From UHGV virus genome UHGV-1384413: a DNA stretch of 64,000 nt, one strand, 5' to 3'. The DNA comes from a virus. Positions 10,430-31,595 of the stretch are shown in pieces. The notes beneath the pieces are model-generated. The model had not been told where the DNA came from. It saw only the letters and a program-made list of their open reading frames with translations, and did not search any database. A program made the position numbers and the translations under genes. The stretch's first letter is position 1; the number at the start of each line of letters is the position of its first letter.

Positions 10430-10780
10430 ATGAAAGATGGGGATAAGCTGCTATATCTTAAAGTCCCCCTTGAAATACTGTCTATGTCAAAAGTTTTGAA
10501 TGACACAACTGGGGAGGTTGTTGTTCTTGACTTATATGACAAGATCGTATACTGCTACCTGCACAACTGGTATAAGCTTGGAGAAAATTCACGCTTCACA
10601 CCCAGCACAAGGAAAATTGCAGCAGATGTTGGGATAAAGAAAACAAAAGCAGCAGCGTGCGTTAAAACTTTAGAATGTGCAGGAGTGGTTGAAATATCCA
10701 CACAAGGGAGAGGTAAAAGATGCACATTTTCCAAAGTTTTGCCACCAGAAGAAGTTATTCGAATGTCAACAACTGGTTAG
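10430..10780 (+). CDS. winged-helix DNA-binding protein (possible iteron-binding regulator or initiator)
   Basis: 116 aa; helix-turn-helix-like STRKIAADVGIKKTKAAACVKTLECAGVV; sits directly upstream of the palindromic repeat array. Confidence 0.4.
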   Translation: MKDGDKLLYLKVPLEILSMSKVLNDTTGEVVVLDLYDKIVYCYLHNWYKLGENSRFTPSTRKIAADVGIKKTKAAACVKTLECAGVVEISTQGRGKRCTFSKVLPPEEVIRMSTTG

Positions 10781-10855
10781 ACCAGTAAAAACTTAAACAT
10801 CTGTACTATAAGGATTTGTATGTTTTATGTTCACTCTGGAACAGAGGTTAGTAAC

Positions 10856-10936
10856 TGTCCGTGATACGGACACTACTGTCCGTCACGCGGACACATCTGC
10901 CCGTAGTACGGACACTAACTGTCCGTGATACGGACA
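10856..10936. repeat. array of four imperfect palindromic iterons, GTCCG-N5-CGGAC, on a 21-22 bp period
   Basis: Half-site starts at 10857, 10878, 10899 (gcccg variant) and 10921; units 1 and 4 are identical (taactgtccgtgatacggacac). Confidence 0.8.
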
Positions 10937-11075
10937 CATAAAGAATATAACTAAAATAACTAAATAATAAAAATAAAAGATCTAGCACTTATGGTACTAA
11001 AGTACATATACTTAACTTATGTAGAATATACTAGATCCTAAGTACCATGTTTTAAATTTATTACTTATTACTTAT
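10937..11075. other. AT-rich tract with short direct repeats (possible DNA unwinding element)
   Basis: ataactaaaataactaaataataaaaataaaag and ttattacttattacttatta; no ORF on either strand. Confidence 0.4.
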
Positions 11076-11300
11076 TATGGGTAGTGTCGGCCCTTCATTG
11101 GCACTCGCCTACGAGGGGCGAGATGCCGGGCCTCCGTAGTGCACACAATAACAGAAGTGCATACATGCAGGACTGTTAACATGTGTGGGAGCGAAGCGAT
11201 AGCGCAGGCCAAAGGCCGAGCACTAATGTGGATCACCGACGAAAGCTTGCCAGCGCCGGAAGGAGTCGGTTGAGAGCCTCCCGCGCGAGTTCTGATAAAG
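11076..11300. other. GC-rich ORF-free segment with multiple hairpins (candidate structured RNA or cis-element)
   Basis: Local inverted repeats ctcgcc..ggcgag and ggcc aaa ggcc; composition contrasts sharply with the flanking AT-rich DNA; no ORF of 60 aa or more. Confidence 0.3.
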
Positions 11301-11447
11301 TTTATGTGTGGAAACTGACAAGAAGGCTCCTAAATCGCTCCACAGCTATATAAACTATACCAAGTAAGGCAATCGCACCAGTTTGATAGAAAAGCTCGTT
11401 ACAAAGCGATACAGTGAGTTTTTCTATAACTTGAAGAGGAGGCTGCT

Positions 11448-12026
11448 ATGAGTTCACGCAAAGATGCCCGTGAAAAGATTGCAAAACGTTATCAGGATGA
11501 AGAACAGATGGAGAAAACTTTCAAGTGGAAGCCAGGTTTCCAGCGTAATCATTCTAACGCCCGTGATCGTAAGCATCCTGATAAGTGGCTAACACCGCCA
11601 AATGATGGCATGCAGGTTGGTGATGAGAAGGAGCTATCACCTGGAAAAGATGGCAACTACATTCGCACTAAGGACGCCAGTCCAAAGGATGACAGCTATC
11701 TTGTAGATAAGGTTCTTGATGGTATTGATGTAGATGTTGACACTGCACGAAACCTTTTTCTTGGTTGGTATCGTACAGGGTTTTTCGACATCAAGGCTAT
11801 TCGTCGTGTTTGTGATATTAAAAAGTCTGCATATGATGACGACTCGTTACATCGCACCCTGAGACAATATTCAGAAAGATATGGTCATCCGGTTATCACT
11901 CTTGACGATGTTAACGAAGTGATGTATCATGCAGAGGTTGTTGCAGGCAGATTTGGTGATGCATATCTTGATATCCTTTCTGCAAACGATGAGGTAATGT
12001 TGAATAAGATTTACTATGAACGTTGA
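11448..12026 (+). CDS. hypothetical protein
   Basis: 192 aa; RBS gaggagg upstream of the ATG. Confidence 0.45.
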   Translation: MSSRKDAREKIAKRYQDEEQMEKTFKWKPGFQRNHSNARDRKHPDKWLTPPNDGMQVGDEKELSPGKDGNYIRTKDASPKDDSYLVDKVLDGIDVDVDTARNLFLGWYRTGFFDIKAIRRVCDIKKSAYDDDSLHRTLRQYSERYGHPVITLDDVNEVMYHAEVVAGRFGDAYLDILSANDEVMLNKIYYER

Positions 12027-12225
12027 GGAGAGCTTAATGAACAATCCGGTAGCAAAGAACTGTAATAAGTTCAACAAGTCTGCAATTCACACCGACAGGA
12101 AAAAGAGCTGGTCACCGGACATTGACGAGGAGCTTGAGAATTACTTTGAAGATCTAGTCACCAATGCAGGTGAGGTTGCGATTAAAGAATACGCAGACAG
12201 GAAGGATAAGGCCGGAATCTGTTGA
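12016..12225 (+). CDS. hypothetical protein
   Basis: 69-aa ORF overlapping the preceding stop. Confidence 0.3.
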   Translation: MNVEESLMNNPVAKNCNKFNKSAIHTDRKKSWSPDIDEELENYFEDLVTNAGEVAIKEYADRKDKAGIC

Positions 12226-12272
12226 CAAAAATAATGTTACCTGATAAGATCTGCAATATGATGTGATACAAT
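12222..12272 (+). promoter_or_regulatory. promoter region (TTGACA-17-TAAGAT, plus downstream TGATACAAT extended -10)
   Basis: TTGACA 12222-12227 and TAAGAT 12245-12250; TGATACAAT 12264-12272 is identical to the motif at 30669. Confidence 0.4.
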
Positions 12273-12301
12273 TTTAACTTACGAGGTCTACAGGTAATGC
12301 T

Positions 12302-12544
12302 ATGTTTAAGGTTAAGCTCGTTTTCCGTTCCATGAATGAGGATTATTTAGAAGATGAAGGTGAATTTCGTGCACTAGATGATGCAATAGATTTTGCCAAC
12401 GACTTAGCTTGTATGAATACTGGTTATGGTTTATGTTGTTGGGATGGTGGTGTTCAGATTGGTGATAGCAAGATCTTCTACTTCTACCCTGAGCCCGATA
12501 ACAAACAAATTAAGTATGTTTTATTTATTTGTGCTTTACAATAA
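12302..12544 (+). CDS. hypothetical protein
   Basis: 80-aa ORF. Confidence 0.4.
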   Translation: MFKVKLVFRSMNEDYLEDEGEFRALDDAIDFANDLACMNTGYGLCCWDGGVQIGDSKIFYFYPEPDNKQIKYVLFICALQ

Positions 12545-12832
12545 GGTTGTTTTCGTGTATCATGATGAATATCCAATTTAAAGATGAGTTTGATGGCTTT
12601 ATCTCCGGATGCTTTGAAACAGGGTTCGGAGAAGACTGAGTTCCCCTTAGAGGGCTTGATAGTGCACCACACTTAAAATGGTAGGGGCAGCCAGCACATG
12701 ACGATGTGACCCCAGCCAACCTGTAATAAGGTCGAGCCAGAGCGCGGTAATGGGTATCTGGTAACCCACTTGTTGGGTCTTGCTGGTCCAGGACGCTGGG
12801 CAAGTCGCAGGGAATACCACCCTGCGGCGAAC
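12545..12832. other. GC-rich non-coding island (candidate structured RNA)
   Basis: No plus-strand ORF; all three minus frames stay open with Pro/Arg/Ser-rich low-complexity translations (track ORFs 12484-12954); perfect hairpin cgcaggg-aatacca-ccctgcg at 12806-12826. Confidence 0.35.
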
Positions 12833-12861
12833 TTGACAATCAGTATTTGCCGTGATAAAAT
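12833..12861 (+). promoter_or_regulatory. consensus sigma70 promoter with extended -10
   Basis: TTGACA 12833-12838, 17-bp spacer, TGaTAAAAT ending at 12861. Confidence 0.55.
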
Positions 12862-12889
12862 CCACCTATCACGTGATAATGGAGGAAAC

Positions 12890-13228
12890 ATGGCGGATAC
12901 AACTAAAAAGCGTCGCCGTAGAGGCAGACCTCTGAAAGAGGAGTCCAACGCCATTCAGCTAGAGAAGAACATTCTTGATATGAAGGAATCTTTTATAGCG
13001 ATGGTTCCAGAAGCTCACAAAGTTTTAAGAGAGCTGATGTTGGACCCGAAAACCAAACAAAATATTCGTCAAAGCATTGCAGAGTATGTTCTTGATAAGG
13101 CAGACCGAATGCAGGAAGAATATGATGAGATGTTTGGTGAAGAGGAAGAGGTGGTAGTAGAAGAGGCTGAAAAACCAGCACCTTTTATGCCATTTACCAC
13201 AGAAATACAGCCTGTTGGCAATAGTTAA
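12890..13228 (+). CDS. small DNA-binding-like protein with basic N-terminus and acidic C-terminus (terminase small subunit candidate, speculative)
   Basis: Start moved to ATG 12890 (RBS ggagga, promoter at 12833); MADTTKKRRRRGRPLK AT-hook-like N-terminus; track start 12770 lies in the GC island. Confidence 0.4.
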   Translation: MADTTKKRRRRGRPLKEESNAIQLEKNILDMKESFIAMVPEAHKVLRELMLDPKTKQNIRQSIAEYVLDKADRMQEEYDEMFGEEEEVVVEEAEKPAPFMPFTTEIQPVGNS

Positions 13229-13237
13229 AATATTTTC

Positions 13238-13266
13238 TTGACAAACTTTGCTTAACAGTGTAATAT
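13238..13266 (+). promoter_or_regulatory. sigma70-like promoter for the tRNA cluster
   Basis: TTGACA 13238-13243, 17 bp, TAATAT 13261-13266. Confidence 0.5.
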
Positions 13267-13324
13267 TGTAAACATGGTCTCCCACCTTTTCTGGCGGCTC
13301 AGGTGTAAAAGAAAGCCACCCAGT

Positions 13325-13399
13325 GCCCTGTTAGCTTAGTGGATAAAGCAGCGGCCTTCTAAGCCGTTGACACTGGTTCGAGTCCAGTACGGGGTGCCA
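13325..13399 (+). tRNA. tRNA-Arg (anticodon TCT)
   Basis: Manual cloverleaf: acceptor gccctgt/acggggt, D stem gctt/aagc, anticodon loop cuUCUaa, T loop ttcgagt, CCA encoded. Confidence 0.7.
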
Positions 13400-13403
13400 A
13401 ATT

Positions 13404-13490
13404 GGGGAGTTATCCCGTAGAGGTAGCGGTGTAGACTGTAAATCTATTGTCATTGCGACTCGGGTGGTTCGACTCCACCACTCCCCACCA
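13404..13490 (+). tRNA. tRNA-Tyr (anticodon GTA), long variable arm
   Basis: Acceptor ggggagt/actcccc, anticodon loop cuGUAaa, variable arm tgtcattgcgactcg, T loop ttcgact, CCA encoded; D stem imperfect. Confidence 0.65.
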
Positions 13491-13604
13491 AATTTACATT
13501 TTTAAATGCATAAATTATACAGATAATGACATTGATATTTATCGTCGTTTATACTAGTCACTAACTGCTCGAAAATCAGTGTCATTATCAGTGTAATTTA
13601 TAAA

Positions 13605-13695
13605 GGAGAGTAGGGAGCAATGGTGCTCAAGCGGTCTTGAAAACCGTCCCATTGAGGACGACTTGATGATGGTTCGATTCCATTACTCTCCGCCA
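13605..13695 (+). tRNA. tRNA-Ser (anticodon TGA), long variable arm
   Basis: Acceptor ggagagt/actctcc, anticodon stem gcggt/accgt with loop cuUGAaa, 20-nt variable arm, T loop ttcgatt, CCA encoded. Confidence 0.65.
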
Positions 13696-13793
13696 TATTG
13701 TTAACCTTGTAATTAAGCGAAAGCCGGAAGCAGAACCGGATTATCAAATGTTACAGTCGTCATCGCCGACTAGCAACATGGTTAACATTATTC

Positions 13794-13890
13794 GCTAGGT
13801 AAGCCCTTTGGCAAGGGCGAGGATTTTTAATCCTGAAAATAGACGAGGTAGTCGTTGAATACATAGGTGGTTCGATTCCATCACCTAGCA
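13794..13890 (+). tRNA. atypical tRNA-like gene (best fit anticodon TTT, Lys-like) with ~30-nt variable region
   Basis: Perfect 7-bp acceptor gctaggt/acctagc and canonical T arm ggtgg-ttcgatt-ccatc, but the anticodon arm is 4 bp plus a G.G pair around loop uuUUUaa, followed by a 30-nt stem-loop region; no CCA. Confidence 0.4.
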
Positions 13891-13896
13891 CCTTTT

Positions 13897-13972
13897 GCTG
13901 ATGTAGCACAATTGGCAGTGCAATTGATTTGTAATCAATAGGTTGCAGGTTCAAGTCCTGCCATCAGCACCA
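13897..13972 (+). tRNA. tRNA-Thr (anticodon TGT)
   Basis: Acceptor gctgatg/catcagc, anticodon stem attga/tcaat with loop uuUGUaa, T arm gcagg-ttcaagt-cctgc, CCA encoded. Confidence 0.7.
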
Positions 13973-13973
13973 T

Positions 13974-14048
13974 GGCCCTGTAGCTGGAAGGTTCAAGCAA
14001 GCGACTCATAATCGCCAGACGGTGGTTCAATTCCACCCAGGGCCACCA
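13974..14048 (+). tRNA. tRNA-Met or tRNA-Ile2 (anticodon CAT)
   Basis: Acceptor ggccctg/cagggcc, anticodon loop cuCAUaa, T arm ggtgg-ttcaatt-ccacc, CCA encoded. Confidence 0.65.
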
Positions 14049-14059
14049 AATAATAAATA

Positions 14060-14136
14060 CTCCGCGTAGCTCAGCTTGGTAGAGCGCCTGATTTGGGATC
14101 AGGAGGTCGAGTGTTCGAATCACTCCGTGGAGACCA
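14060..14136 (+). tRNA. tRNA-Pro (anticodon TGG)
   Basis: Acceptor ctccgcg/cgtggag, D arm gctcagcttggtagagc, anticodon stem cctga/tcagg with loop uuUGGga, CCA encoded. Confidence 0.7.
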
Positions 14137-14957: not shown

Positions 14958-15241
14958 GAGTTACTGCACTGGTTGTTTTGTGCTTGTTATTGTGTGGGTG
15001 TGCAACCAGCGTTGAGAGAGAATACAAGATTGACCCTCCGGATGTAGGAAGGTTGATTGTTAAACCTCCCGAGGGTGCTATGAAACCACCTGCTAAAGCT
15101 ATCCCTTTGAAGAAAGGTGCGCCAGATGCGGTGAATTCTGGCATTATGAGGGATAATAACCTGTCTTGTAGTAATGATAGGGCTAAATTGATCATTTTGC
15201 AAGACTATATAAGAACACTGTTTCCAAAGGAGAGAGGTTAA
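14954..15241 (+). CDS. o-spanin-like lipoprotein
   Basis: 95 aa; signal peptide ending in lipobox-like LLCGC, proline-rich mature part; coupled to the i-spanin gene. Confidence 0.5.
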   Translation: MRVTALVVLCLLLCGCATSVEREYKIDPPDVGRLIVKPPEGAMKPPAKAIPLKKGAPDAVNSGIMRDNNLSCSNDRAKLIILQDYIRTLFPKERG

Positions 15242-15666
15242 TGTCTAAGATTTACGGACCGTGTTCTGAAAAGCAGAAGATGATCCTAGAGAACGATGCA
15301 GATATTTTGGTGATCGGAGGTGCAGCTGGGTCTGGCAAGTCGTTCCTCTTGCAGCTAATGCCGCTTAAAATTATTGATGACCCGCACAGCTCTGTGGTTA
15401 TGTTCCGAAGAACAACTCCCCAGTTGGAAGGTGAGGGTGGGCTATGGCCTAAAGCAGTAGCTATTTACAGTGATCTGCCTGAAAACATTAAACCAAAGTT
15501 CAGAGAGAAGGATCATAAGTTTATTTTTCCACGGTTTGATCCGAGCACTGGCAAGTGGGATAGGAGCAAAAAGGGGGCCGTTGTAAAATACTGCCACATG
15601 GAGTATGTCCAAGATAAGCTTAACCATCAAGGCCTTGAGTACACCATGGTTTGCTTCGATGAGGGT
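15241..15666 (+). CDS. terminase large subunit, ATPase N-terminal part (exon 1)
   Basis: Walker A GGAAGSGKS; ORF ends straight after Walker B MVCFDEG with TAA at 15667. Confidence 0.7.
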
Positions 15667-16550
15667 TAATTTGTAGCTCTCGTAAAACCTCCCTAATTGC
15701 GGGGAAATCTTTATTATTGACACCACCAACCTGTCATGGTAACATGATAGAGGCTTCGAAGAGAGATCGAAGGTATGGTAACAGTGTGTTAATTTAGATA
15801 ATCCGCAGCGAAGCATCCGAGAGGATGAACGTTCAACGACTAGTCGAAAGACGTAGAATCAAGCGATTCGAAACGGGAGGGTGAATGTGTAATACTAAAA
15901 AAATGTATGGATTGCCAAAGAGTTCTGCCTCTTGATGATTTCTTTTTATCATCTAAGAGCAAGGATGGATACTCAGGTACATGCAAGGAATGCTATATGT
16001 ACTACAGGAAGAATGGATCTCGTAGAAACAAAAATATGGTTAAGAGAGATGATGCAGCATCTTTTGTTCAAGACTTGCTGAAGAAAGGTGAGCTTTTTGA
16101 ATGTAAATCTTGTCATGAAAGTATGCTTGCTGATAGTTTTTACACAAAGCGTGACTATGGTAAAGTGTATCTGGTTACGAACAGGTGTAAGATGTGTGAA
16201 AAGTTTTATCAGATTGAGAAGAAATTTCACATAACAAAAGATGAATACTATCGTTTACTCTCAGATCAAGATCATAAGTGTGCCATTTGTAGAATATCTC
16301 TTGATGAGTATAGGACGCAAGGGTACAGAGATTTCTTTTGTGTTGATCATGACCATAAAACTGGTGCTGTAAGAGGGTTGCTTTGTGATAAATGCAACAG
16401 AGCTTTAGGGTTCTTCCAAGAGGATGAGGAAACCATTCTTAGAGCAGCAGAGTATTTGCACATTCATAAGATATAGTCTGGTCTGCATGGAGACATGCAG
16501 CTGCCTGAAAATGGCGGGGCAAGACTAGCGACCTTGCCCGAACATAAACG
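15667..16550 (+). mobile_element. probable group I intron (boundaries approximate) carrying an HNH homing endonuclease ORF
   Basis: Interrupts the terminase reading frame right after Walker B; ORF-free flanks 15667-15906 and 16477-16550 contain hairpins such as gggcaag/cttgccc; stop at the 5' junction, candidate omega-G at 16550. Confidence 0.5.
15907..16476 (+). CDS. HNH homing endonuclease
   Basis: 189 aa; several CxxC pairs and canonical FCVDHDHKTGAVRGLLCDKCNRALG HNH core. Confidence 0.75.
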   Translation: MDCQRVLPLDDFFLSSKSKDGYSGTCKECYMYYRKNGSRRNKNMVKRDDAASFVQDLLKKGELFECKSCHESMLADSFYTKRDYGKVYLVTNRCKMCEKFYQIEKKFHITKDEYYRLLSDQDHKCAICRISLDEYRTQGYRDFFCVDHDHKTGAVRGLLCDKCNRALGFFQEDEETILRAAEYLHIHKI

Positions 16551-17672
16551 ACGCAATTCGAATGGGAGCAGATAGACTACCTGATGTCTCGTTTGCGATC
16601 TCAGTCAAAGTATCCATCAAGAATGGTTATCAGCTGTAACCCCGACTCAGAACACATGCTTGCCAAACTGGTTAGGTGGTGGTTGGACGATGAAGGGTAT
16701 CCAGATCCGGAGAAATGTGGTAAGAAAAGATATTTTATCCGACGCGACGGTGAATTTATTTGGGGAGACTCTAAAGAAGAGTTAATAGAGAAATACACCA
16801 CGGTTAACGGACTGGGTGTGGAGATCAAGCCAAGACCGTTGTCATTCTCGTTTATAGGCGCAACAATTTTCGATAATCCTGTCTGCTTGAGAGACAACCC
16901 AGAATACCTTGCTTTCCTTGAAGGTCTGCCAGAGCTTGAAAAAGCCCAGCTTCTTCATGGAAACTGGTTTGCCAAACCTGAGGGTGCAAACTATTTCCAA
17001 AGATCTTTCCTTCGGGATGCCGATAGAGTACCTCTTGGATCAGTATCTTGCAGGGCATGGGATAAGGCAGGAACCGAGAGAACTTCCGGTAATAAATTTC
17101 CTGACTTTACTGCCAGTGTTAAGGTAAGTAAAGATAGCGACGGCTTTTATTACCTGTCCGGGGATTATTGTCCTGAGAACGTGGATGACGGTAGGTATTC
17201 CACAGGTCTGGAAGGAAAGTTCTGTAAAAAGGCTGGGGAACGAGATGTGATCATCAGGAAACAGGCGCAGTTTGATGGAGATGATTGCATAATCGTATTT
17301 TCTGTGGACCCCGGTCAGGCAGGTAAGAGTGAGTTCTTAACCTCGTCCAGATCCTTGCTCGCCGAAGGGTTCAGGGTTGAAGAAGATCCAATGCCTTCCA
17401 ACAAATCTAAGCTGACAAGGTTCTCACCTTTTGCCAATCTTGCCCAACAAGGAATGGTGAGGATTGTAAAATCCAGTTTCCATCCTGACACTCTGGAAGC
17501 ATTTCTGACTGAACTTGAAAAGTTCAACGGGGAAAGATCAACATTTAACAGAAAAGACGACTGGGCCGACTGTGTAGCTTCTGCGATTAATTTCCTGGAG
17601 AAAGAGGAGGTAGCGCTGCCTTGTGTGATTCCATCAATCTCATCACCTTCTATGTTCAAGCGTTTTATCTAA
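16551..17672 (+). CDS. terminase large subunit, nuclease C-terminal part (exon 2; 5' boundary approximate)
   Basis: Frame open from 16548; TQFEWEQIDYLMSRLRS..VISCNPD continues the ATPase C-motif region, then a nuclease-domain-like region FSVDPGQAGKSEF. Confidence 0.6.
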   Translation, partial: TQFEWEQIDYLMSRLRSQSKYPSRMVISCNPDSEHMLAKLVRWWLDDEGYPDPEKCGKKRYFIRRDGEFIWGDSKEELIEKYTTVNGLGVEIKPRPLSFSFIGATIFDNPVCLRDNPEYLAFLEGLPELEKAQLLHGNWFAKPEGANYFQRSFLRDADRVPLGSVSCRAWDKAGTERTSGNKFPDFTASVKVSKDSDGFYYLSGDYCPENVDDGRYSTGLEGKFCKKAGERDVIIRKQAQFDGDDCIIVFSVDPGQAGKSEFLTSSRSLLAEGFRVEEDPMPSNKSKLTRFSPFANLAQQGMVRIVKSSFHPDTLEAFLTELEKFNGERSTFNRKDDWADCVASAINFLEKEEVALPCVIPSISSPSMFKRFI

Positions 17673-17774: not shown

Positions 17775-19331
17775 GTGTCCAAAAAGAACCGCAGGAAACA
17801 CAACGCCACAGCCAAAACTGTGAATAAATCTGGGAACGCAGGCGCACCAACTCATAATGTTCGTATGAGTGAGATCGGTTCTGGCGCACTTTCCCAAATT
17901 ATGGCAGAATCACAATCTATGATGGTTGAGGAATTGCGTTGGCCTCAACTGATTGCCACAGTGGAGACTATGAAATGTGATTCCACAGTTGCTACTGCCT
18001 TAGATACAAAATATGTTTTCATCACGAAAGCATTCAATGATTTTAAGATCCTTTATAATGTTAAAAGTGAAGACTCTAAGAAAGCCGCCGAGCTTATAGA
18101 GTATTCTTTGCGTAATTTGGCAAACCAACAAACTCTTCGAGATATTGCAAGAAGCGCAGCTACCTTTAACGAGTATGGTTTTTCACTGTTTGAGAAAGTA
18201 TACCGCAGAGAGAAAGAAGGTAAATACGCCGGGATGCTTCTTATTGATAAGATTGCGTTCCGACCACAGGCCAGTTTGTCCAGATCAGAGCCGTTTGTCT
18301 TTGACAAGAATAGTAGAACACTGACAGGTATTTATCAATCACCTAATGCATTTCTAAACACGCAGAATGCACGCTGGGCTGGTCCTCTCGCTGCAATGCC
18401 TTCAAAAGGCTTTAATGAGCCTGAAATTTTCATCCCTGCTAAAAAGCTTATGCTCATGACTCTGTCAGGAACAGAATCTAACCCTGCAGGTGTGTCACCG
18501 ATGATAGGTTGCTACAGATCTTTCCGTGAGAAAGTTTTGATTGAAAACCTTGAGGTTGTTGGCTGTTCCAAAGACCTTGGTGGTGTTCTTGAGCTGAAAA
18601 TTCCTTCCAATATTTTGAACAAGGCCAGTATTGACCCGAATTCAATGGAAGGGAGAATGGTTGCAGATCTTATGCTTGACGCAGCAAACGCCCATAGTGG
18701 GGAGCAAAGTTTCTTTATACTTCCGTCTGATAGAGATAAGTCTGGTAAAGAGCTTTACTCCATGACCCTGAAGGGGGTTGATGGTATGGGTAAGCAGTAT
18801 TCCACTAAAGATTTGATTGATGCCCGTAAGAAGGCGATTCTTGACCGTTTCGGTGCTGGCTTTATTAACCTTGGTAACGATAACGTTGGATCCTTCTCTC
18901 TGTCTGAGTCAAAACAATCTATTCATGGTCATTTTGTTCAGCGTGATATAGATATTATCACTGAGGCCTTCAATAAAGATCTTATTCCACAGCTTCTGGC
19001 ATTGAATGGTATCATCCTTGAAGATGATGATATGCCTAAACTGAAACCTGGTCTGATTGAAGAAGTGGACATGGAGAGCTTCTCCAAGTTTGTCCAGAGG
19101 ATCGGTGCTGTAGGTTACTTGCCAAAAACTCCTGCAGTAATTAATAAGATTCTTGAAGTAGGTGGGTTTGATGAAAGATTTGACGAGGACATGGATCAGG
19201 AAGAGCTAATGAAGCTCTTGGGCCAGGACATCAGCAGGGCTGGCGATGGAATGGCTGCAGGATCCACTGGCAACGGCACTTCTAAGATGTCATCAACCAG
19301 AGATAATTCCATATCCAACATGGAAAATTAA
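17775..19331 (+). CDS. portal protein (putative; GTG start)
   Basis: 518 aa directly after terminase and before scaffold and capsid; acidic C-terminus; call is by position and size. Confidence 0.5.
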   Translation: MSKKNRRKHNATAKTVNKSGNAGAPTHNVRMSEIGSGALSQIMAESQSMMVEELRWPQLIATVETMKCDSTVATALDTKYVFITKAFNDFKILYNVKSEDSKKAAELIEYSLRNLANQQTLRDIARSAATFNEYGFSLFEKVYRREKEGKYAGMLLIDKIAFRPQASLSRSEPFVFDKNSRTLTGIYQSPNAFLNTQNARWAGPLAAMPSKGFNEPEIFIPAKKLMLMTLSGTESNPAGVSPMIGCYRSFREKVLIENLEVVGCSKDLGGVLELKIPSNILNKASIDPNSMEGRMVADLMLDAANAHSGEQSFFILPSDRDKSGKELYSMTLKGVDGMGKQYSTKDLIDARKKAILDRFGAGFINLGNDNVGSFSLSESKQSIHGHFVQRDIDIITEAFNKDLIPQLLALNGIILEDDDMPKLKPGLIEEVDMESFSKFVQRIGAVGYLPKTPAVINKILEVGGFDERFDEDMDQEELMKLLGQDISRAGDGMAAGSTGNGTSKMSSTRDNSISNMEN

Positions 19332-23933: not shown

Positions 23934-24392
23934 ATGCTAAAGGTTAAATGTCAAACAAGGTTCAACCTAAAGCGTTTAGATCGCTTTTATAAAGACCTTG
24001 TGAAACTTGAAAGCAAAACAATAACCTACGGCTTTTATGATGAACCTCACCCGTCAGGCTTAAATATGGCAACATTGGCAGCTATTCACAACTTCGGTTG
24101 GAACGGGCTGCCTGTTCGCAATTTCATGGAGACGGCCTTTGCATTTCACAGCACGCAACTACAGACCTTGACAGAAAAATTGTTGAGAGCTATGGCTAGA
24201 GGATCAAGTGCAGAGGCTGTTCTTAGGCAGATGGGGGACACAGGGGCCAAAGCTATCCAGTTTGTTATTGAGGCTGGTCAGTTTAGTAACCCTACTGTTA
24301 GTGAGCAGTGGGCACAAGAGAAGGGCTTCAACGAGGCTATGCGGCATTACGATGTGCTGCTTGAATCTGCAACCTTTAAAATTGGACAGTAA
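23934..24392 (+). CDS. head-tail connector or tail completion protein (putative)
   Basis: 152 aa from ATG 23934 with RBS gaggaa. Confidence 0.35.
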   Translation: MLKVKCQTRFNLKRLDRFYKDLVKLESKTITYGFYDEPHPSGLNMATLAAIHNFGWNGLPVRNFMETAFAFHSTQLQTLTEKLLRAMARGSSAEAVLRQMGDTGAKAIQFVIEAGQFSNPTVSEQWAQEKGFNEAMRHYDVLLESATFKIGQ

Positions 24393-28267: not shown

Positions 28268-30604
28268 ATGGCTACAAACAAAATAGTTGCCACAACAGTC
28301 AACAAGATTGGCTTTGAGATAGAGAACTCCTCCTACAAAAAAGCTGTAGAGAAAATTCGCAGTATTGGGAGAGAGTTCAGGAAACTGGGCGAGGATTTTA
28401 ACTCAGCCAACCCAATGAGTAGATGGCAGGCAGTGGCTGTTAAAACCCAGCAAACAATGCAGCGGGTTGCCAGACAGCAATCTCAGGCAAATGCTAAATT
28501 GCACAGGGAGAGCGTAACACAAGCCAAGAAAGAGGCTGCAGTAAGGGCTGCAATAGAACGTAGGGAGAACGCGAGACGTAAACAAGCTGTAGGTAATCTT
28601 ACCGCTAAAAATCCAGAAATGGCTAGGATGCGTAAGTTCTACCAGCAGCAAGCTAAAGAGGCCAAAAAGGCTGCCAAATCTGCACCAGTGTCTTACGGAG
28701 GTTATAAGGCACCTAAGGCAAGAGTTTTGGCTAATGCCAAATCTTTCAAATATATCCCCGGTAACCCTAACATGGGTGGTGTGGCTTCCGACCCTAATCT
28801 TGTGAAAGCTCAGACAGCGGCTATGAACCGTTACCATAGGCAGCTAAGAAGGGACAGTAAAGCTGGTATGGATAATAGGCTTATGTCGGATCGTGAGGCA
28901 AGAAGAACCCACCTCTACAACTCTGCGATAAGACTTTCTGCCAAGTATGGGGCTGGATTCCGTGGAAGCTTGCCAGGATACTCAGAGTTAGAGTCCAGGT
29001 TTGCTCGCGGAGAGATGAAAAAGTCAACCTTTAACGCCCACCTGTCAGCTCTGCAGTCTGGGTTTAAAAGCGCCACCAGCCAAACGCTTACACTAGGCGA
29101 TGCCCTGAGAGACTTACGTAGATCTGTTATTAATGCAACAGCTGCGTATACAGCTTTTTCTGGATTTGCTGCGGTGAACAGATCCGGTCACATGATGGAG
29201 GGGGCAAGTGCTGCTCTTACTGCTGTTACTGGAGATCCAAACAAAGCCAACAGTGAAGTTGCGTTTGTCCAGCAGGAGGCTATGCGTCTTGGTTTTGATC
29301 TCAAATCTGGTCTTCAGGGTTATTCTCAGATGGCGGTGAACGCCAAAAATCAGATGACGAACCAAGAGGTCCATGAGCTATTCTCTGCATACTCACAGTA
29401 TGCTGCTGCTTATGGTGCCGATGAGGTAAAATACCAGCGCGGTATTATGGCAATCCAGCAAATGCTCGGTAAAGGGCAGGTAATGTCAGAAGAACTTAAG
29501 CAACAGCTTGCTGAGGCGTTACCTGGGGCATATGAACCTTTCATCAAGGCCACCAAAGAGGCTTTTGGTCTTTCTGAACTCTCCATGGATCAGTTCATGG
29601 ACATGATGAAGAAAGGTGAGGTTAAAACAGCCAAGATCATGAAGTATGTGGCTAAGTACATGAACGAGGCATCTGCAGCTGGTTATGAGAGAATGCAGAA
29701 GTCTAACGTGCTGGCAGAAAACAGACTGAAAACCTTCATCGAACTGTCCCGTCAGAAACTGTTCACCCGTTGGGCTGACGAACTAACAGAGTTCTATTAT
29801 ACACTGATTCGCACTGGTGAGACTTTGCAATTTGTGTGGGATGCCTCTGGTGATTTTGTTAGCGGGTTTGTGAGAGGTCTCAACTGGGTAGTTGGTGAAC
29901 TAAACAATACCATAGTCAAGATCCGCCTGTTTTTCCTTGAATGGGGGATTAAATGGGGATTCATAACAGCTAAGACGAAGGAATATTCTGAAGAGCTTCA
30001 TGACACCTTTAGTTATGCTAAATGGGCAGGGTTTGCTGCTGCCATCATGCTGGTCGTCAACGCCCTAACAAAAGGTTTTGTCATGGCATCTATGCTTGTA
30101 AAAACCTTTAAATTCCTTAGCTCTATAAGAGGCGCAGCTGGAGCAGCAGGTGCAGCTACTGCAGAAGGATCTGGTGGTGGTGGCGCGGCAGGAAAAGGTG
30201 GAGGTGGCCTCAAGACACCTGGTGGTAAAGTTGGCCTGCTTGGTAAGCTGGGTATTATCGGTACAATATTGAGCGCCGGGGAGTTATTTAATGACCGTTT
30301 CAACCCACTGAGTGAGAGAAATCAGCAACTGGATACTATCAGCGATATGATTCGCAAAGATATCATATCTGGAGGTAACGGGTTTGTTGATCCTTTGGAC
30401 ACCTTACCGGGCGGTACTCTTCCGTTGCCGGGTGGCCCTGGTTTTGCTTCTCAATTAAGAACTATGGAAATGCTCCCTTTAGAGATTAGTGATGGGAAAA
30501 TCACGATTTCAATAGATGAGGGTGAGTTTAGCAAAATACTTGATGCAAAACTTGAGTGGGAGAACAACAAAGATATTAACTTTATGTCAACAGATCTTTG
30601 GTAA
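28268..30604 (+). CDS. tail tape measure protein
   Basis: 778 aa, Ala/Gln/Lys-rich helical N-terminal half, Gly-rich hydrophobic segment AAGAAGAATAEGSGGGGAAGKGGGG; follows the chaperone pair. Confidence 0.6.
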   Translation: MATNKIVATTVNKIGFEIENSSYKKAVEKIRSIGREFRKLGEDFNSANPMSRWQAVAVKTQQTMQRVARQQSQANAKLHRESVTQAKKEAAVRAAIERRENARRKQAVGNLTAKNPEMARMRKFYQQQAKEAKKAAKSAPVSYGGYKAPKARVLANAKSFKYIPGNPNMGGVASDPNLVKAQTAAMNRYHRQLRRDSKAGMDNRLMSDREARRTHLYNSAIRLSAKYGAGFRGSLPGYSELESRFARGEMKKSTFNAHLSALQSGFKSATSQTLTLGDALRDLRRSVINATAAYTAFSGFAAVNRSGHMMEGASAALTAVTGDPNKANSEVAFVQQEAMRLGFDLKSGLQGYSQMAVNAKNQMTNQEVHELFSAYSQYAAAYGADEVKYQRGIMAIQQMLGKGQVMSEELKQQLAEALPGAYEPFIKATKEAFGLSELSMDQFMDMMKKGEVKTAKIMKYVAKYMNEASAAGYERMQKSNVLAENRLKTFIELSRQKLFTRWADELTEFYYTLIRTGETLQFVWDASGDFVSGFVRGLNWVVGELNNTIVKIRLFFLEWGIKWGFITAKTKEYSEELHDTFSYAKWAGFAAAIMLVVNALTKGFVMASMLVKTFKFLSSIRGAAGAAGAATAEGSGGGGAAGKGGGGLKTPGGKVGLLGKLGIIGTILSAGELFNDRFNPLSERNQQLDTISDMIRKDIISGGNGFVDPLDTLPGGTLPLPGGPGFASQLRTMEMLPLEISDGKITISIDEGEFSKILDAKLEWENNKDINFMSTDLW

Positions 30605-30710: not shown

Positions 30711-31595
30711 ATGCCAAGCAATATAGTTGATGAAAAAGACCTGTACAAGCCTCAAGAGGTTAAATCTCCAAAGGCTGAAAAGGCAGAGCAGCAAACTGAA
30801 AGCGATGTAAAGTACACTATGTTTGTCAGCGGTCTTAACTATGGTGGTCGCAATACGGAGATGAAGGGTAAAAACTTTACTAACGATCTTGCCATTATCT
30901 TCGATCAGGTTGAGAACTACTCTTTCAAACATTCTGTTGATAAAACTGGTTTTGCAGTGGAAGATAAATCTACCATGTCAGACCACGCTGTAATTAAAGA
31001 TGGTGTATTTTCTTTTACTGGTAGAGTAAATACATCTCCACATATAATTTATGAGCAAAACTACATTGATAGGAATACTGACTCTAAAAACCCTGCAGCA
31101 TCTATGCGACCAGGCGCTGCATTGGAGGCTTTGACTGAGATTATCAATAAGCGACAGTTGGTTTCTTTGGTTACCGAGGAGAGACTCCTTGAGAACTACA
31201 TCATAACCAGTCTTTCTGCCAACAAGTCTGCTGGTGAAGGCGCTGCAATGGTGTTTGATGTAGAGCTTACAGAGTTCCGCACATTCTACTTGAATAAGGT
31301 TGTTAATGCAACTGTATACAGCAATCCTAAGAAAGTAGGCAAGACCCAGCAAAAAGGCGCTGTCAACGATTGTAAGAATGGCAGTAACGTGGGTAACAAA
31401 AGGGACACAGGAGCATTTGCAGACACTGCATCCACAAATGCCGCAGAAGAGTGGCAGCCATACAAATCTATGATGTGGACAGATGAAAACGGTGTCACCC
31501 AATCTGCTGCGGATTGGTACTATCAGGAGTATGGAAGACCTTCTACCATAGTCCCATCTGAGCAGGGAAACTACAACAAAGTTAACGGAAAATAA
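30711..31595 (+). CDS. tail/baseplate protein
   Basis: 294 aa from ATG 30711 with RBS ggagagg; track start 30684 rejected. Confidence 0.4.
   Translation: MPSNIVDEKDLYKPQEVKSPKAEKAEQQTESDVKYTMFVSGLNYGGRNTEMKGKNFTNDLAIIFDQVENYSFKHSVDKTGFAVEDKSTMSDHAVIKDGVFSFTGRVNTSPHIIYEQNYIDRNTDSKNPAASMRPGAALEALTEIINKRQLVSLVTEERLLENYIITSLSANKSAGEGAAMVFDVELTEFRTFYLNKVVNATVYSNPKKVGKTQQKGAVNDCKNGSNVGNKRDTGAFADTASTNAAEEWQPYKSMMWTDENGVTQSAADWYYQEYGRPSTIVPSEQGNYNKVNGK

Follow-up and report, generated by a model that had tools for sequence, protein, structure and literature searches.

The replication origin of bacteriophage lambda (ori-lambda) consists of about four phased, dyad-symmetric repeats of 18–19 bp, an AT-rich tract that melts, and then a GC-richer palindromic segment; its initiator, lambda O, is a winged-helix protein whose specificity co-varies with the repeats between related phages. 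In the IncQ plasmid RSF1010, oriV is composed of iterons, an AT-rich tract, and the ssiA and ssiB hairpins, which are read by a dedicated primase. At other origins, such as ColE1 with its RNA II, oriF and oriG of T4, the primary origin of T7, and those of the Inc18 plasmids (pAMbeta1), transcripts activate or prime DNA synthesis. Stable phage RNAs that are not tRNAs, including T4 RNAs C and D, GOLLD, and ROOL, are found near tRNA genes, and cis-acting sequences can be common to a satellite and its helper, as with the cos site of P4 and P2 or with PLE and ICP1. Here we describe a computational analysis of a non-coding locus in a 64,000-nt stretch of the virus genome UHGV-1384413 (the window, in which coordinates count from the first letter) that has features in common with these systems: an array of iteron-like repeats and an AT-rich tract follow a gene for an initiator-like protein and are adjoined by a GC-rich element of multiple hairpins.

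Our view is that this locus has two parts, an iteron-type replication origin and an adjoining folded element whose role is linked to this origin, an interpretation of the sequence that we hold with about even confidence. About 1.5 kb around the locus were 90–99% identical to 120 records of rV5/FV3-like coliphages of the genus Vequintavirus, and by this similarity the window is a Vequintavirus (rV5/FV3-like) genome. The GC-rich element was also found in small Escherichia coli plasmids, and the putative satellite link makes the locus considerably more interesting than an anomaly of base composition.

An extreme composition switch beside an initiator-like gene

The original prediction had described an AT-rich tract that abruptly gives way to a GC-rich segment full of local inverted repeats, with no open reading frame (ORF) of 60 aa or more on either strand over about 500 bp. 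This description was accurate, and the feature is real and extreme within the 64-kb window. The ORF-free stretch is in fact larger (10781–11447, 667 bp) and is the longest one without an ORF of at least 60 aa in the 64 kb, followed by a stretch of 474 bp that is the tRNA cluster. The AT-rich tract (10937–11075) has 20.1% GC at a window mean of 44.0% (standard deviation 4.3%), which is close to the minimum, as only 0.01% of all 139-bp intervals are as low and the lowest one (19.4%, starting at 10938) almost coincides with it. The GC-rich segment (11076–11300) reaches 57.3% GC and ties the maximum of all 225-bp intervals in the 64 kb (0.573, interval starting at 11070), and the largest GC step between adjacent 100-bp intervals lies at 10938. 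The inverted repeats in the GC-rich segment were recovered by a repeat search. The plus strand of 11070–11310 had a minimum free energy of −89.7 kcal/mol (z = −2.58), and 2 of 200 dinucleotide shuffles folded as well; this single-sequence score is modest on its own, and the comparative evidence presented below is much stronger.

Four tandem 17-bp palindromes (10856–10936) fall just to the left of the start coordinate chosen in the original prediction and were missed there, and as the AT-rich tract is not interpretable without them, this boundary cut off an essential part of the locus. Our repeat search detected them as four iteron-like repeats with a 22-nt unit (10852–10937), each of which holds the palindrome TGTCCGTnnnnCGGACA (10856–10872, 10877–10893, 10898–10914, and 10920–10936), with start-to-start spacings of 21, 21, and 22 bp, corresponding to two helical turns. 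The gene in front of the repeats (10430–10780, plus strand), which was likewise outside the coordinates first considered, encodes a 116-aa winged-helix protein that is a candidate origin-binding initiator. It matched the PHROG family phrog_12838 ("replication initiation protein") with an E-value of 2e-79, three other initiator PHROGs more weakly, and the Pfam families DUF6945 and HTH_36 at about their cut-offs, and in relatives the gene is annotated as "replication initiation protein" or "transcriptional regulator". When we searched for relatives of solved structure, the 116-aa protein matched only an uncharacterized 120-aa protein (4ro3), and the 192-aa protein encoded downstream of the locus matched none. 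Both proteins were confined to Vequintavirus in the phage collection searched.

The AT-rich tract holds two GATC sites (10979 and 11034) and a weak sigma-70-like site (TTTAAA-16-TATTAT, 11051–11078, scoring 9/12), the only such match ahead of the GC-rich element, the spacing of which is lost in close relatives by a 7-nt indel. The 7-nt sequence ATTACTT occurs in two copies in the window (11060–11073) and in a single copy in all close relatives examined. A DnaA-box-like sequence was found by eye within the folded element, outside the AT-rich tract: TGTGGATCA (11227–11235) agrees in 8 of 9 positions with TGTGGATAA, the complement of the DnaA box consensus, and most relatives have TGTGGACCA with 7 of 9 positions. 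The minimum of the cumulative GC skew of the window lies in the 8–10 kb interval, 1–3 kb from the module formed by gene, repeats, and AT-rich tract.

Joint replacement of gene, repeats, and AT-rich tract

To delimit the parts of the locus, we compared the window segment by segment with L011, a 137-kb metagenome contig of a divergent Vequintavirus. The phosphoesterase gene in front of the module was 88% identical, and so were, to a similar degree, the GC-rich element from 11083 onward (86%), the spacer between the element and the gene that follows it (81%), and the 192-aa gene (83%). The winged-helix gene, the repeats, and the AT-rich tract between them had only about 50–55% identity, the level of unrelated sequences. 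In L011, the counterpart of the 116-aa protein has 143 aa and is a distant homolog (27% identity, E-value 3e-6) that also matches an initiator PHROG, five unrelated 20-nt repeats take the place of the TGTCCGTnnnnCGGACA array, and the sequence of the AT-rich tract is not conserved, but L011 has an AT/A-rich tract of its own at the equivalent position. As these three components were jointly replaced, they behave as one module, and we consider them an exchangeable specificity module, the right edge of which would be the AT-to-GC switch. In other genera of the Vequintavirinae, which we followed via the phosphoesterase gene, the gene order differs and no comparable module was found alongside.

Iteron origins are recognizable in sequence by several phased direct repeats of about 17–23 bp, an adjacent and markedly AT-rich tract, and a neighboring initiator gene that co-varies with the repeats. 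At the level of the sequence, the four palindromes correspond to the repeats; 10937–11075 corresponds to the tract by its composition, and the 116-aa gene to the initiator gene by homology and by the joint replacement in L011.

Small plasmids share the GC-rich element

A BLAST search with 11070–11310 against complete E. coli genomes and plasmids identified circular plasmids of 13.2–13.7 kb, in which the matches were located in unannotated DNA, and metagenomes contributed contigs of 13.9 and 15.5 kb. A second, more divergent plasmid type (type 2) was identified in addition. In total, about a dozen E. coli plasmids or contigs of around 13.5 kb carry the two conserved ends of the element. The family comprises L004 (NZ_CP020521.1), L005–L008, L014, L016, and L027–L030 with sizes of 13.2–13.9 kb, and NZ_CP043822.1 (39.6 kb) appears to be a trimer.

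These plasmids encode a major capsid protein, a tape-measure protein (26% identical to that of window 28280–30127), a neck/tail-completion protein (44%, window 23940–24362), a baseplate-like protein (50%, window 30774–31397), and several helix-turn-helix proteins; polymerase, helicase, primase, and terminase genes were not recognized in them. Apart from three structural genes, the element is the only notable DNA similarity between plasmids and phage. Judged by their gene content, they resemble satellites of rV5-like phages that are maintained in plasmid form.

The plasmids also share the layout of the locus. They have 3–6 repeats of 21–36 nt, followed by an AT-rich stretch and then by the homologous element, and their winged-helix proteins have weak matches to initiator or lambda-O-like PHROGs. 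Whereas the phages have the initiator-like gene upstream of the element, the plasmids have it downstream. In both phage clades and both plasmid types that were examined, the element directly abuts an iteron array and an AT-rich tract, and the sequences of the iteron arrays, AT-rich tracts, and initiator-like proteins differ between the lineages.

In the collections searched, the element was restricted to Vequintavirus and these plasmids, and a collection of 50,697 phage records contained no similar sequence in other phages. A search of IMG/VR, GTDB genomes, and metagenomes with 20–21-mers of the core of the element added one more phage, one metagenome phage contig, and two plasmid-like contigs; its remaining matches were dismissed as chance hits in coding DNA of high-GC organisms, and the gapped pattern TGTGTGGG...AATGTGGA...CCGCGC gave only chance matches in IMG/VR. 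A host-derived repeat of the REP/ERIC type had also been considered and was rejected, as the 5,426 complete E. coli genomes yielded matches in plasmids only and none in chromosomes.

Anatomy of the element

The element is encoded on the plus strand as a single copy per phage genome and comprises about 205 nt (11083–11287), with its 5' limit being the start of homology with plasmid L003. Its 5' hairpin domain (11083–11134) has stems that span 11089–11132, with an outer stem GGCCC/GGGCC and an inner stem GGCACUCGCC/GGCGAG(A)UGCC. The following region (11135–11181) contains a variable middle hairpin (AACAG...CUGUU, 11150–11177) with a high density of substitutions and, in L020 and L021, an 18-nt deletion (11145–11162). 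The terminal domain of about 105 nt (11182–11287) starts with TGTGTGGGAG (11182–11191), continues with the motif GCGAAGC (11192–11198) and a variable hairpin region, and reaches the junction AATGTGGA (11225–11232). Behind the junction, a terminal 6-bp helix (ACCGAC/GTCGGT, 11235–11240 with 11265–11270) encloses the 26-nt core CGAAAGCTTGCCAGCGCCGGAAGGAG (11240–11265), which is composed of a 24-nt loop and one stem base at each end, and the domain closes with CTCCCGCGCG (11278–11287). A motif TGTGTGG showed no telling enrichment elsewhere in the window.

In the plasmids, the middle part consists of one to four hairpin cassettes, each with two or three short hairpins, that are separated by TGTGTGGG, and the cassette combinations differ from plasmid to plasmid. 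Most plasmids have a different 5' domain that is rich in G/C runs; the phage-type 5' hairpin of L003 indicates, by its sequence, an exchange between phage and plasmid lineages. In CP134895.1 (L027, 2620–2690, minus strand of the record), one three-hairpin cassette is inverted and flanked by CCCACA/CCACACA, the complement of the TGTGTGGG repeat, which suggests an inversion between short repeats.

Thirty-eight nt past the terminal domain, the phage has the short motif GGCTCCTAAAT (11325–11335, plus strand), and the plasmid copies likewise have GCCCC(C)TAAAT after the element. The consensus GGC(C/T)CCTAAAT is thus common to phages and plasmids, with a distance of about 45–60 nt past the terminal domain in the plasmid loci, where two further CCTAAAT-like motifs and then strong sigma-70-like promoters (TTGACAAT...) follow. 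This motif may be a phage-specific promoter or processing signal.

Base-pairing of the plus strand appears to be selected

The original prediction had suggested RNA folding and covariance analysis across related phages as a check, and we found that stems were kept through compensatory changes in both phages and plasmids. In the 5' hairpin, all 16 pairs formed in the 7 distinct sequences (100% of the cells), including two pairs that are changed on both sides in plasmid L003 (GC to UA), and pairing fell to 34–51% when the partners were slid against each other as a control. All three substitutions that clade-1 phages have in the 5' hairpin domain are located in loops (11094, 11112, and 11114). 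In the terminal helix, 3 of the 6 pairs differ in a compensatory manner between phages (ACCGAC/GUCGGU) and type-1 plasmids (GCUGCC/GGCAGC), and in L011 and L019 an A-U pair is changed to G-U (GCCGAC), which keeps the pair; all cells of this helix pair, compared to 12–57% with slid partners. A third version of it, GUCCGGAU/AUCCGGAC, occupies this position in the type-2 plasmids, between the same AATGTGGA junction and the same 3' end. Compensatory changes were also found at 9 of the 12 pairs of the plasmid hairpin cassettes. Within the core, the four-base loop is GGAA or GUAA among the phages (11259), and a C-to-U exchange at 11256 keeps the closing pair with G.

The direction of these changes distinguishes the strands. 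In 10 of 10 members, the plus strand was more stable than the minus strand, by 0.6–19 kcal/mol with RNA parameters and by 0.9–8.3 kcal/mol with DNA parameters, and one-sided changes such as C to U opposite G or A to G opposite U preserve a pair only in the plus strand. Taken together, the sequence comparisons support the view that the GC-rich half is under selection for base-pairing of the plus strand. In MAFFT alignments, the 5' strand of the closing helix was out of register across the lineages.

A coding signal was not detected, with substitutions by codon position of 6:5:4, 7:10:7, and 6:7:6 and thus no excess at the third position, and no ORF is shared between the lineages, as the longest open frames of the members differ in strand and frame. 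We searched Rfam 15, whose models include RNA I, SRP, 6S, tmRNA, GOLLD, ROOL, and ribozymes. At gathering thresholds, the whole window yielded nothing relevant to the element; with E-values up to 10, the region 10700–13300 yielded only a chance match to rli43 (20.7 bits at a threshold of 100 bits), and in the plasmid-type members L014 and L027 nothing was found over the structured region. By these searches, the element belongs to no cataloged RNA family. A likeness of the core (...CAGCGCCGGAAGGAG...) to helix 8 of the signal recognition particle (SRP) RNA, noticed by eye, was rejected, as there is no SRP match in Rfam and as the similar 3' side in the plasmids is a covarying stem of different sequence in the phages. 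Likewise, the RfaH ops-like GGTAG at 11080–11084 was rejected because it is not kept in close relatives.

The structured non-coding RNA of the original prediction is thus upheld as far as the paired plus strand, the compensatory changes, and the lack of a coding signal are concerned, with the discrete transcript still putative, and hairpins in single-stranded DNA would fit the same observations. As no terminator separates the 116-aa gene from the element, the plus strand is very likely transcribed.

A model of the locus and its weak points

We propose that the first part (10852–11075 together with the gene 10430–10780) is an iteron-type replication origin of the phage, at which binding of the 116-aa protein to the four 17-bp palindromes would lead to opening of the neighboring 139-bp tract of 20% GC. 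The second part (11083–11287) would cooperate with this origin, and two routes can be envisaged: a transcript leaving the unwound region may activate or prime leading-strand synthesis, or hairpins on the exposed lagging-strand template may direct primase. The lineage-specific initiator and iterons would then decide which replicon fires, and the conserved element would be read by a factor common to phage and plasmids, which may be the phage replisome or a host enzyme. We favor an origin-linked role because the element follows an iteron array and an AT-rich tract in every lineage despite their unrelated sequences, and because phage and plasmids have no other substantial non-coding stretch in common. 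The role of the AT-rich tract as an origin unwinding element is suggested by the architecture, and we infer from comparative data the origin function, the binding of the repeats by the protein, the form in which the element acts, and its part in replication. With respect to RNA or single-stranded DNA, the sequence fits both; the size, the multi-domain build, the GNRA-type loop variation, and the G-U-rich closing helix point to RNA. Of the ideas in the original prediction, the unwinding element and the structured nucleic acid were thus partly right, each for a different half: unwinding is supported for the AT-rich half by its context (phased repeats, winged-helix gene, module swap, and plasmid layout).

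More tentatively, the element may be a shared "handle" by which a so far unrecognized family of plasmid-borne satellites exploits virulent rV5-like phages. Such satellites would keep their own initiator and iterons and copy the folded element of the helper, as RNA or single-stranded DNA, so that the replisome or packaging machinery of the helper would treat a 13.5-kb plasmid as phage DNA.

Several observations weigh against the two-part model. The assignment as an initiator is based on family names and on near-threshold similarity to helix-turn-helix domains, many records annotate the 116-aa gene as a transcriptional regulator, and the four palindromes could be operators. The turn of the GC skew is confounded, as transcription also changes direction there, at about 9.3 kb; a skew analysis in the rV5 genome paper that aimed at the origin also gave only transcription-linked turns (PMC3606486). 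As the swap in L011 ends exactly at the 5' edge of the element, the element is separable and could be an unrelated neighbor. In the window and its relatives, the element is not flanked by a conserved promoter or terminator, which leaves a discrete RNA unproven, and no more than three or four independent lineages contribute to the covariation. The closing helix UGUGUGGGAG/CUCCCGCGCG hardly varies and is hence unproven, its sole variant being L011, in which both strands are altered and pairing is kept. Finally, type-2 plasmids are devoid of the 26-nt core, which therefore cannot be a universal recognition site.

Alternative explanations

The following explanations overlap with each other and with the two-part model, and their likelihoods therefore need not add up to one. 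It is possible, but in our opinion doubtful, that the element is a free-standing, trans-acting stable non-coding RNA in a cluster of stable RNAs upstream of the tRNAs and has nothing to do with replication, in which case the plasmid copy would mimic or sponge the target of the phage RNA. The selected pairing of the plus strand, including the GGAA/GUAA loop variation and the U-G pairs, would suit such an RNA, as would the large size with possible long-range helices, the separability from the swapped origin module, and the very likely transcription from the upstream gene without an intervening terminator. Moreover, a second conserved GC-rich segment (12590–12880) and seven tRNA genes (13325–14136) follow on the same strand. 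However, the element has neither a conserved promoter nor a terminator of its own, it matches no Rfam family, and its position next to an iteron array and an AT-rich tract in every lineage would be unexpected for an unrelated gene.

Rather unlikely is a single-strand initiation signal like those of IncQ or G4, in which opening of the AT-rich tract and rightward movement of a helicase would let the plus strand, as the lagging-strand template, form DNA hairpins that are recognized by a primase or primosome. The hallmark of such signals, a cluster of stable hairpins on the exposed template strand beside an origin, is found here as judged by position and DNA folding: the hairpins are on the strand that a rightward fork would expose, they lie beside the candidate unwinding element, and the plus strand is the more stable one with DNA parameters in all 10 members. 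The GCGAAGC at 11192–11198 and the C-GAA-G loops in the plasmid cassettes are in line with DNA as well, as DNA mini-hairpins of the GCGAAGC type are, reportedly from the work of Hirao and colleagues, unusually stable. The inverted cassette in L027 would be easier to tolerate for a DNA signal, and the combination of lineage-specific initiators with a common hairpin block resembles the logic of the IncQ oriV. On the other side, three of the 10 bp in the proposed closing helix would be G-T pairs, which makes it weak in DNA, a multi-domain element of 200–450 nt is larger than known signals of this type, no similarity exists in any other phage of the 50,697-record collection, and a T7-like primase-helicase is encoded by the phage itself, as described in the rV5 paper (PMC3606486).

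That the locus is only a regulatory region appears unlikely. The winged-helix protein would then be a regulator with palindromic operators, a promoter together with an UP-like element would lie in the AT-rich tract, and the GC-rich segment would be a structured 5' leader of the 192-aa gene (11448). This could account for the annotation as a transcriptional regulator in many records, for the palindromes, which are typical of operators, for the sigma-70-like site at 11051–11078, and for the 81% conservation of the spacer between the element and the next gene in L011. However, 115 bp separate the end of the last palindrome from the putative −35 element downstream of it, close relatives do not keep the promoter spacing, and the strong sigma-70-like promoters that plasmids have between the element and the next gene speak against a simple leader. 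In addition, the plasmids need an origin, and each of them has only one iteron array with an AT-rich tract.

The packaging site that the original prediction had also considered is still less probable. Here, the element would be the pac site of a headful terminase, and the plasmids would carry a copy in order to be packaged by the terminase of the helper. A pac site usually lies in or beside the small terminase gene, and no such gene was recognized nearby, including all genes between the origin-like module and the large terminase gene. The stem-preserving compensatory changes are not expected for a site that is read as double-stranded DNA, the type-2 plasmids have no invariant core, and the repeats differ between phage clades with near-identical downstream genes. 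In favor of this explanation, a pac site must exist, because Vequintavirus genomes are circularly permuted and packaged by the headful mechanism (PMC3606486, PMC8407724, PMC13211470). The large terminase gene begins about 4 kb downstream (15241), plasmids with a capsid gene and no recognized terminase would need a helper-compatible packaging signal, and the element is the main non-coding similarity between plasmids and phage, this sharing with the satellite-like plasmids being the only positive evidence for a pac site here.

It is very improbable that the GC-rich segment encodes the small "hypothetical proteins" of 31 and 56 aa, for which ORFs exist (11084–11179 and 11183–11353) and are annotated in some BASEL phage records, and to which deletions of 18 and 3 nt in relatives, both multiples of three, would conform, as most records annotate nothing there, substitutions lack a third-position excess, the longest open frame varies in strand and frame among the members, and the stem changes between phages and plasmids would be radical amino-acid changes.

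Neighboring genes and database records

The genes around the locus are encoded on the plus strand in the order polynucleotide-kinase-like gene, phosphoesterase gene, 116-aa winged-helix gene (10430–10780), ORF-free stretch, 192-aa gene of unknown function (11448–12026), three small genes, and seven tRNA genes (13325–14136); an RNA ligase gene lies on the opposite strand just before this run. The large terminase gene, which starts at 15241 about 4 kb downstream of the locus, is followed by the portal gene (starting at 17775).

The segment 12590–12880 is non-coding and, with 56% GC, contains the second-highest GC content among the 225-bp intervals. It is 92% identical in L011, its plus strand has a predicted folding energy of −99 kcal/mol, it has no match in Rfam, and it is absent from the element-bearing plasmids. 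Most probably, it is a further structured RNA upstream of a 112-aa gene and the tRNA cluster. The product of this 112-aa gene (12890–13228) belongs to phrog_3330 and has an N-terminal KKRRRRGRP, which resembles an AT-hook or arginine-rich motif, and an acidic C-terminus. Among the tRNA genes, the tRNA-like gene at 13794–13892 is 97–99 nt long, was assigned a four-base anticodon (atcc) by ARAGORN and only 35.5 bits by Rfam, and is named tRNA-OTHER or tRNA-Lys in other records; it may have an insertion or intron or an odd anticodon loop. The large terminase gene (15241–17672) is split by a group I intron (Rfam match 15657–16500) with an ORF for an HNH endonuclease (15907–16476), consistent with the introns in the terminase gene that have been reported for rV5 (PMC3606486).

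Two groups of database entries deserve mention. Eighteen GenBank records of the MG0656xx series that are labeled as "Campylobacter phage" with the host Campylobacter jejuni were 95–96% identical to the Vequintavirus region and, by this identity, look like mislabeled or contaminating coliphage genomes. The PLSDB entry CP057073.1, a 137,565-bp "E. coli plasmid" from pooled cattle feces, covered 100% of the GC-rich segment with 95% identity; as a complete Vequintavirus genome is of this size, the entry probably represents a phage genome that was deposited as a plasmid, due to a carrier state or contamination.

Novelty and implications

Phages of the rV5 type are common isolates and serve in biocontrol and therapy work directed at E. 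coli, and their origin has not been located so far. The locus provides a concrete origin candidate with a named candidate initiator and candidate binding sites. The element also ties the phage to small plasmids of E. coli that carry genes for capsid, tape-measure, neck, and baseplate proteins and look like satellites of a strictly lytic myovirus. Literature searches, which were incomplete in coverage and extended to transcriptomes and mapped pac sites, turned up neither the locus nor an origin for Vequintavirus nor any mention of the plasmids as satellites, so that the novelty is provisional; satellite-like plasmids of this kind are also not known to have been described. If the link between phage and plasmids holds, the replication and mobilization of a satellite of a virulent coliphage, the role of a structure-specified common signal, and the interference of plasmids with therapeutic phages would become accessible to experiment. 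Should the element indeed serve as a handle, it would represent a new class of cis-acting, structure-specified recognition signals, and the locus would be the first origin assignment for Vequintavirus.

Comparison with known systems

The left half of the locus appears, by its sequence, to belong to the iteron-type origins. It has the same order of repeats, AT-rich tract, and GC-rich segment as ori-lambda, with some clear differences. The lambda origin is located inside the O gene, whereas here the repeats lie past the stop codon of the gene for a smaller, 116-aa protein; lambda O recruits both P and the DnaB of the host, and a P-like loader was not identified here; and the 28-bp palindrome of lambda is replaced by a conserved multi-hairpin element of about 205 nt.

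For the right half, the likeness to primer RNAs, ssi signals, stable RNAs, and satellite sites is a functional analogy and does not imply membership in any of these groups. As in IncQ plasmids, to which the G4-type signals are a related case, short, stable, and conserved hairpins adjoin the lineage-specific initiator, iterons, and AT-rich tract. However, the sequences are not similar, the element-bearing plasmids encode no recognizable primase, and the element described here is larger, modular, and apparently one-stranded. The transcript-dependent origins resemble the locus in that a structured or origin-crossing transcript would lie by an AT-rich unwinding region, and the fold of RNA II is also kept by compensatory changes. 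In contrast to ColE1, which has neither initiator nor iterons, the locus has no match to RNA I or RNA II in Rfam, and, unlike in T4, where the unwinding element is downstream of the promoter, the conserved fold is downstream of the AT-rich tract. Like the stable phage RNAs, the element is folded, conserved, and non-coding, and it is located 2 kb upstream of a tRNA cluster in the same orientation, but there is no match to GOLLD or ROOL, the element is also present in the satellite-like plasmids, and it always abuts an iteron array.

The comparison with satellites and their helpers concerns the relation between the plasmids and the phage. Here, the link to the helper is suggested by tail-protein homology and the element alone, and the shared stretch evolves like a folded single strand and not like a protein-binding duplex. 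The element-bearing replicons are plasmids and not integrated islands. Common to these systems and the present one are a short, near-identical stretch in otherwise unrelated DNA and few or no encoded enzymes for replication and packaging, and like PLE, the element-bearing plasmids have their own initiator and iterons.

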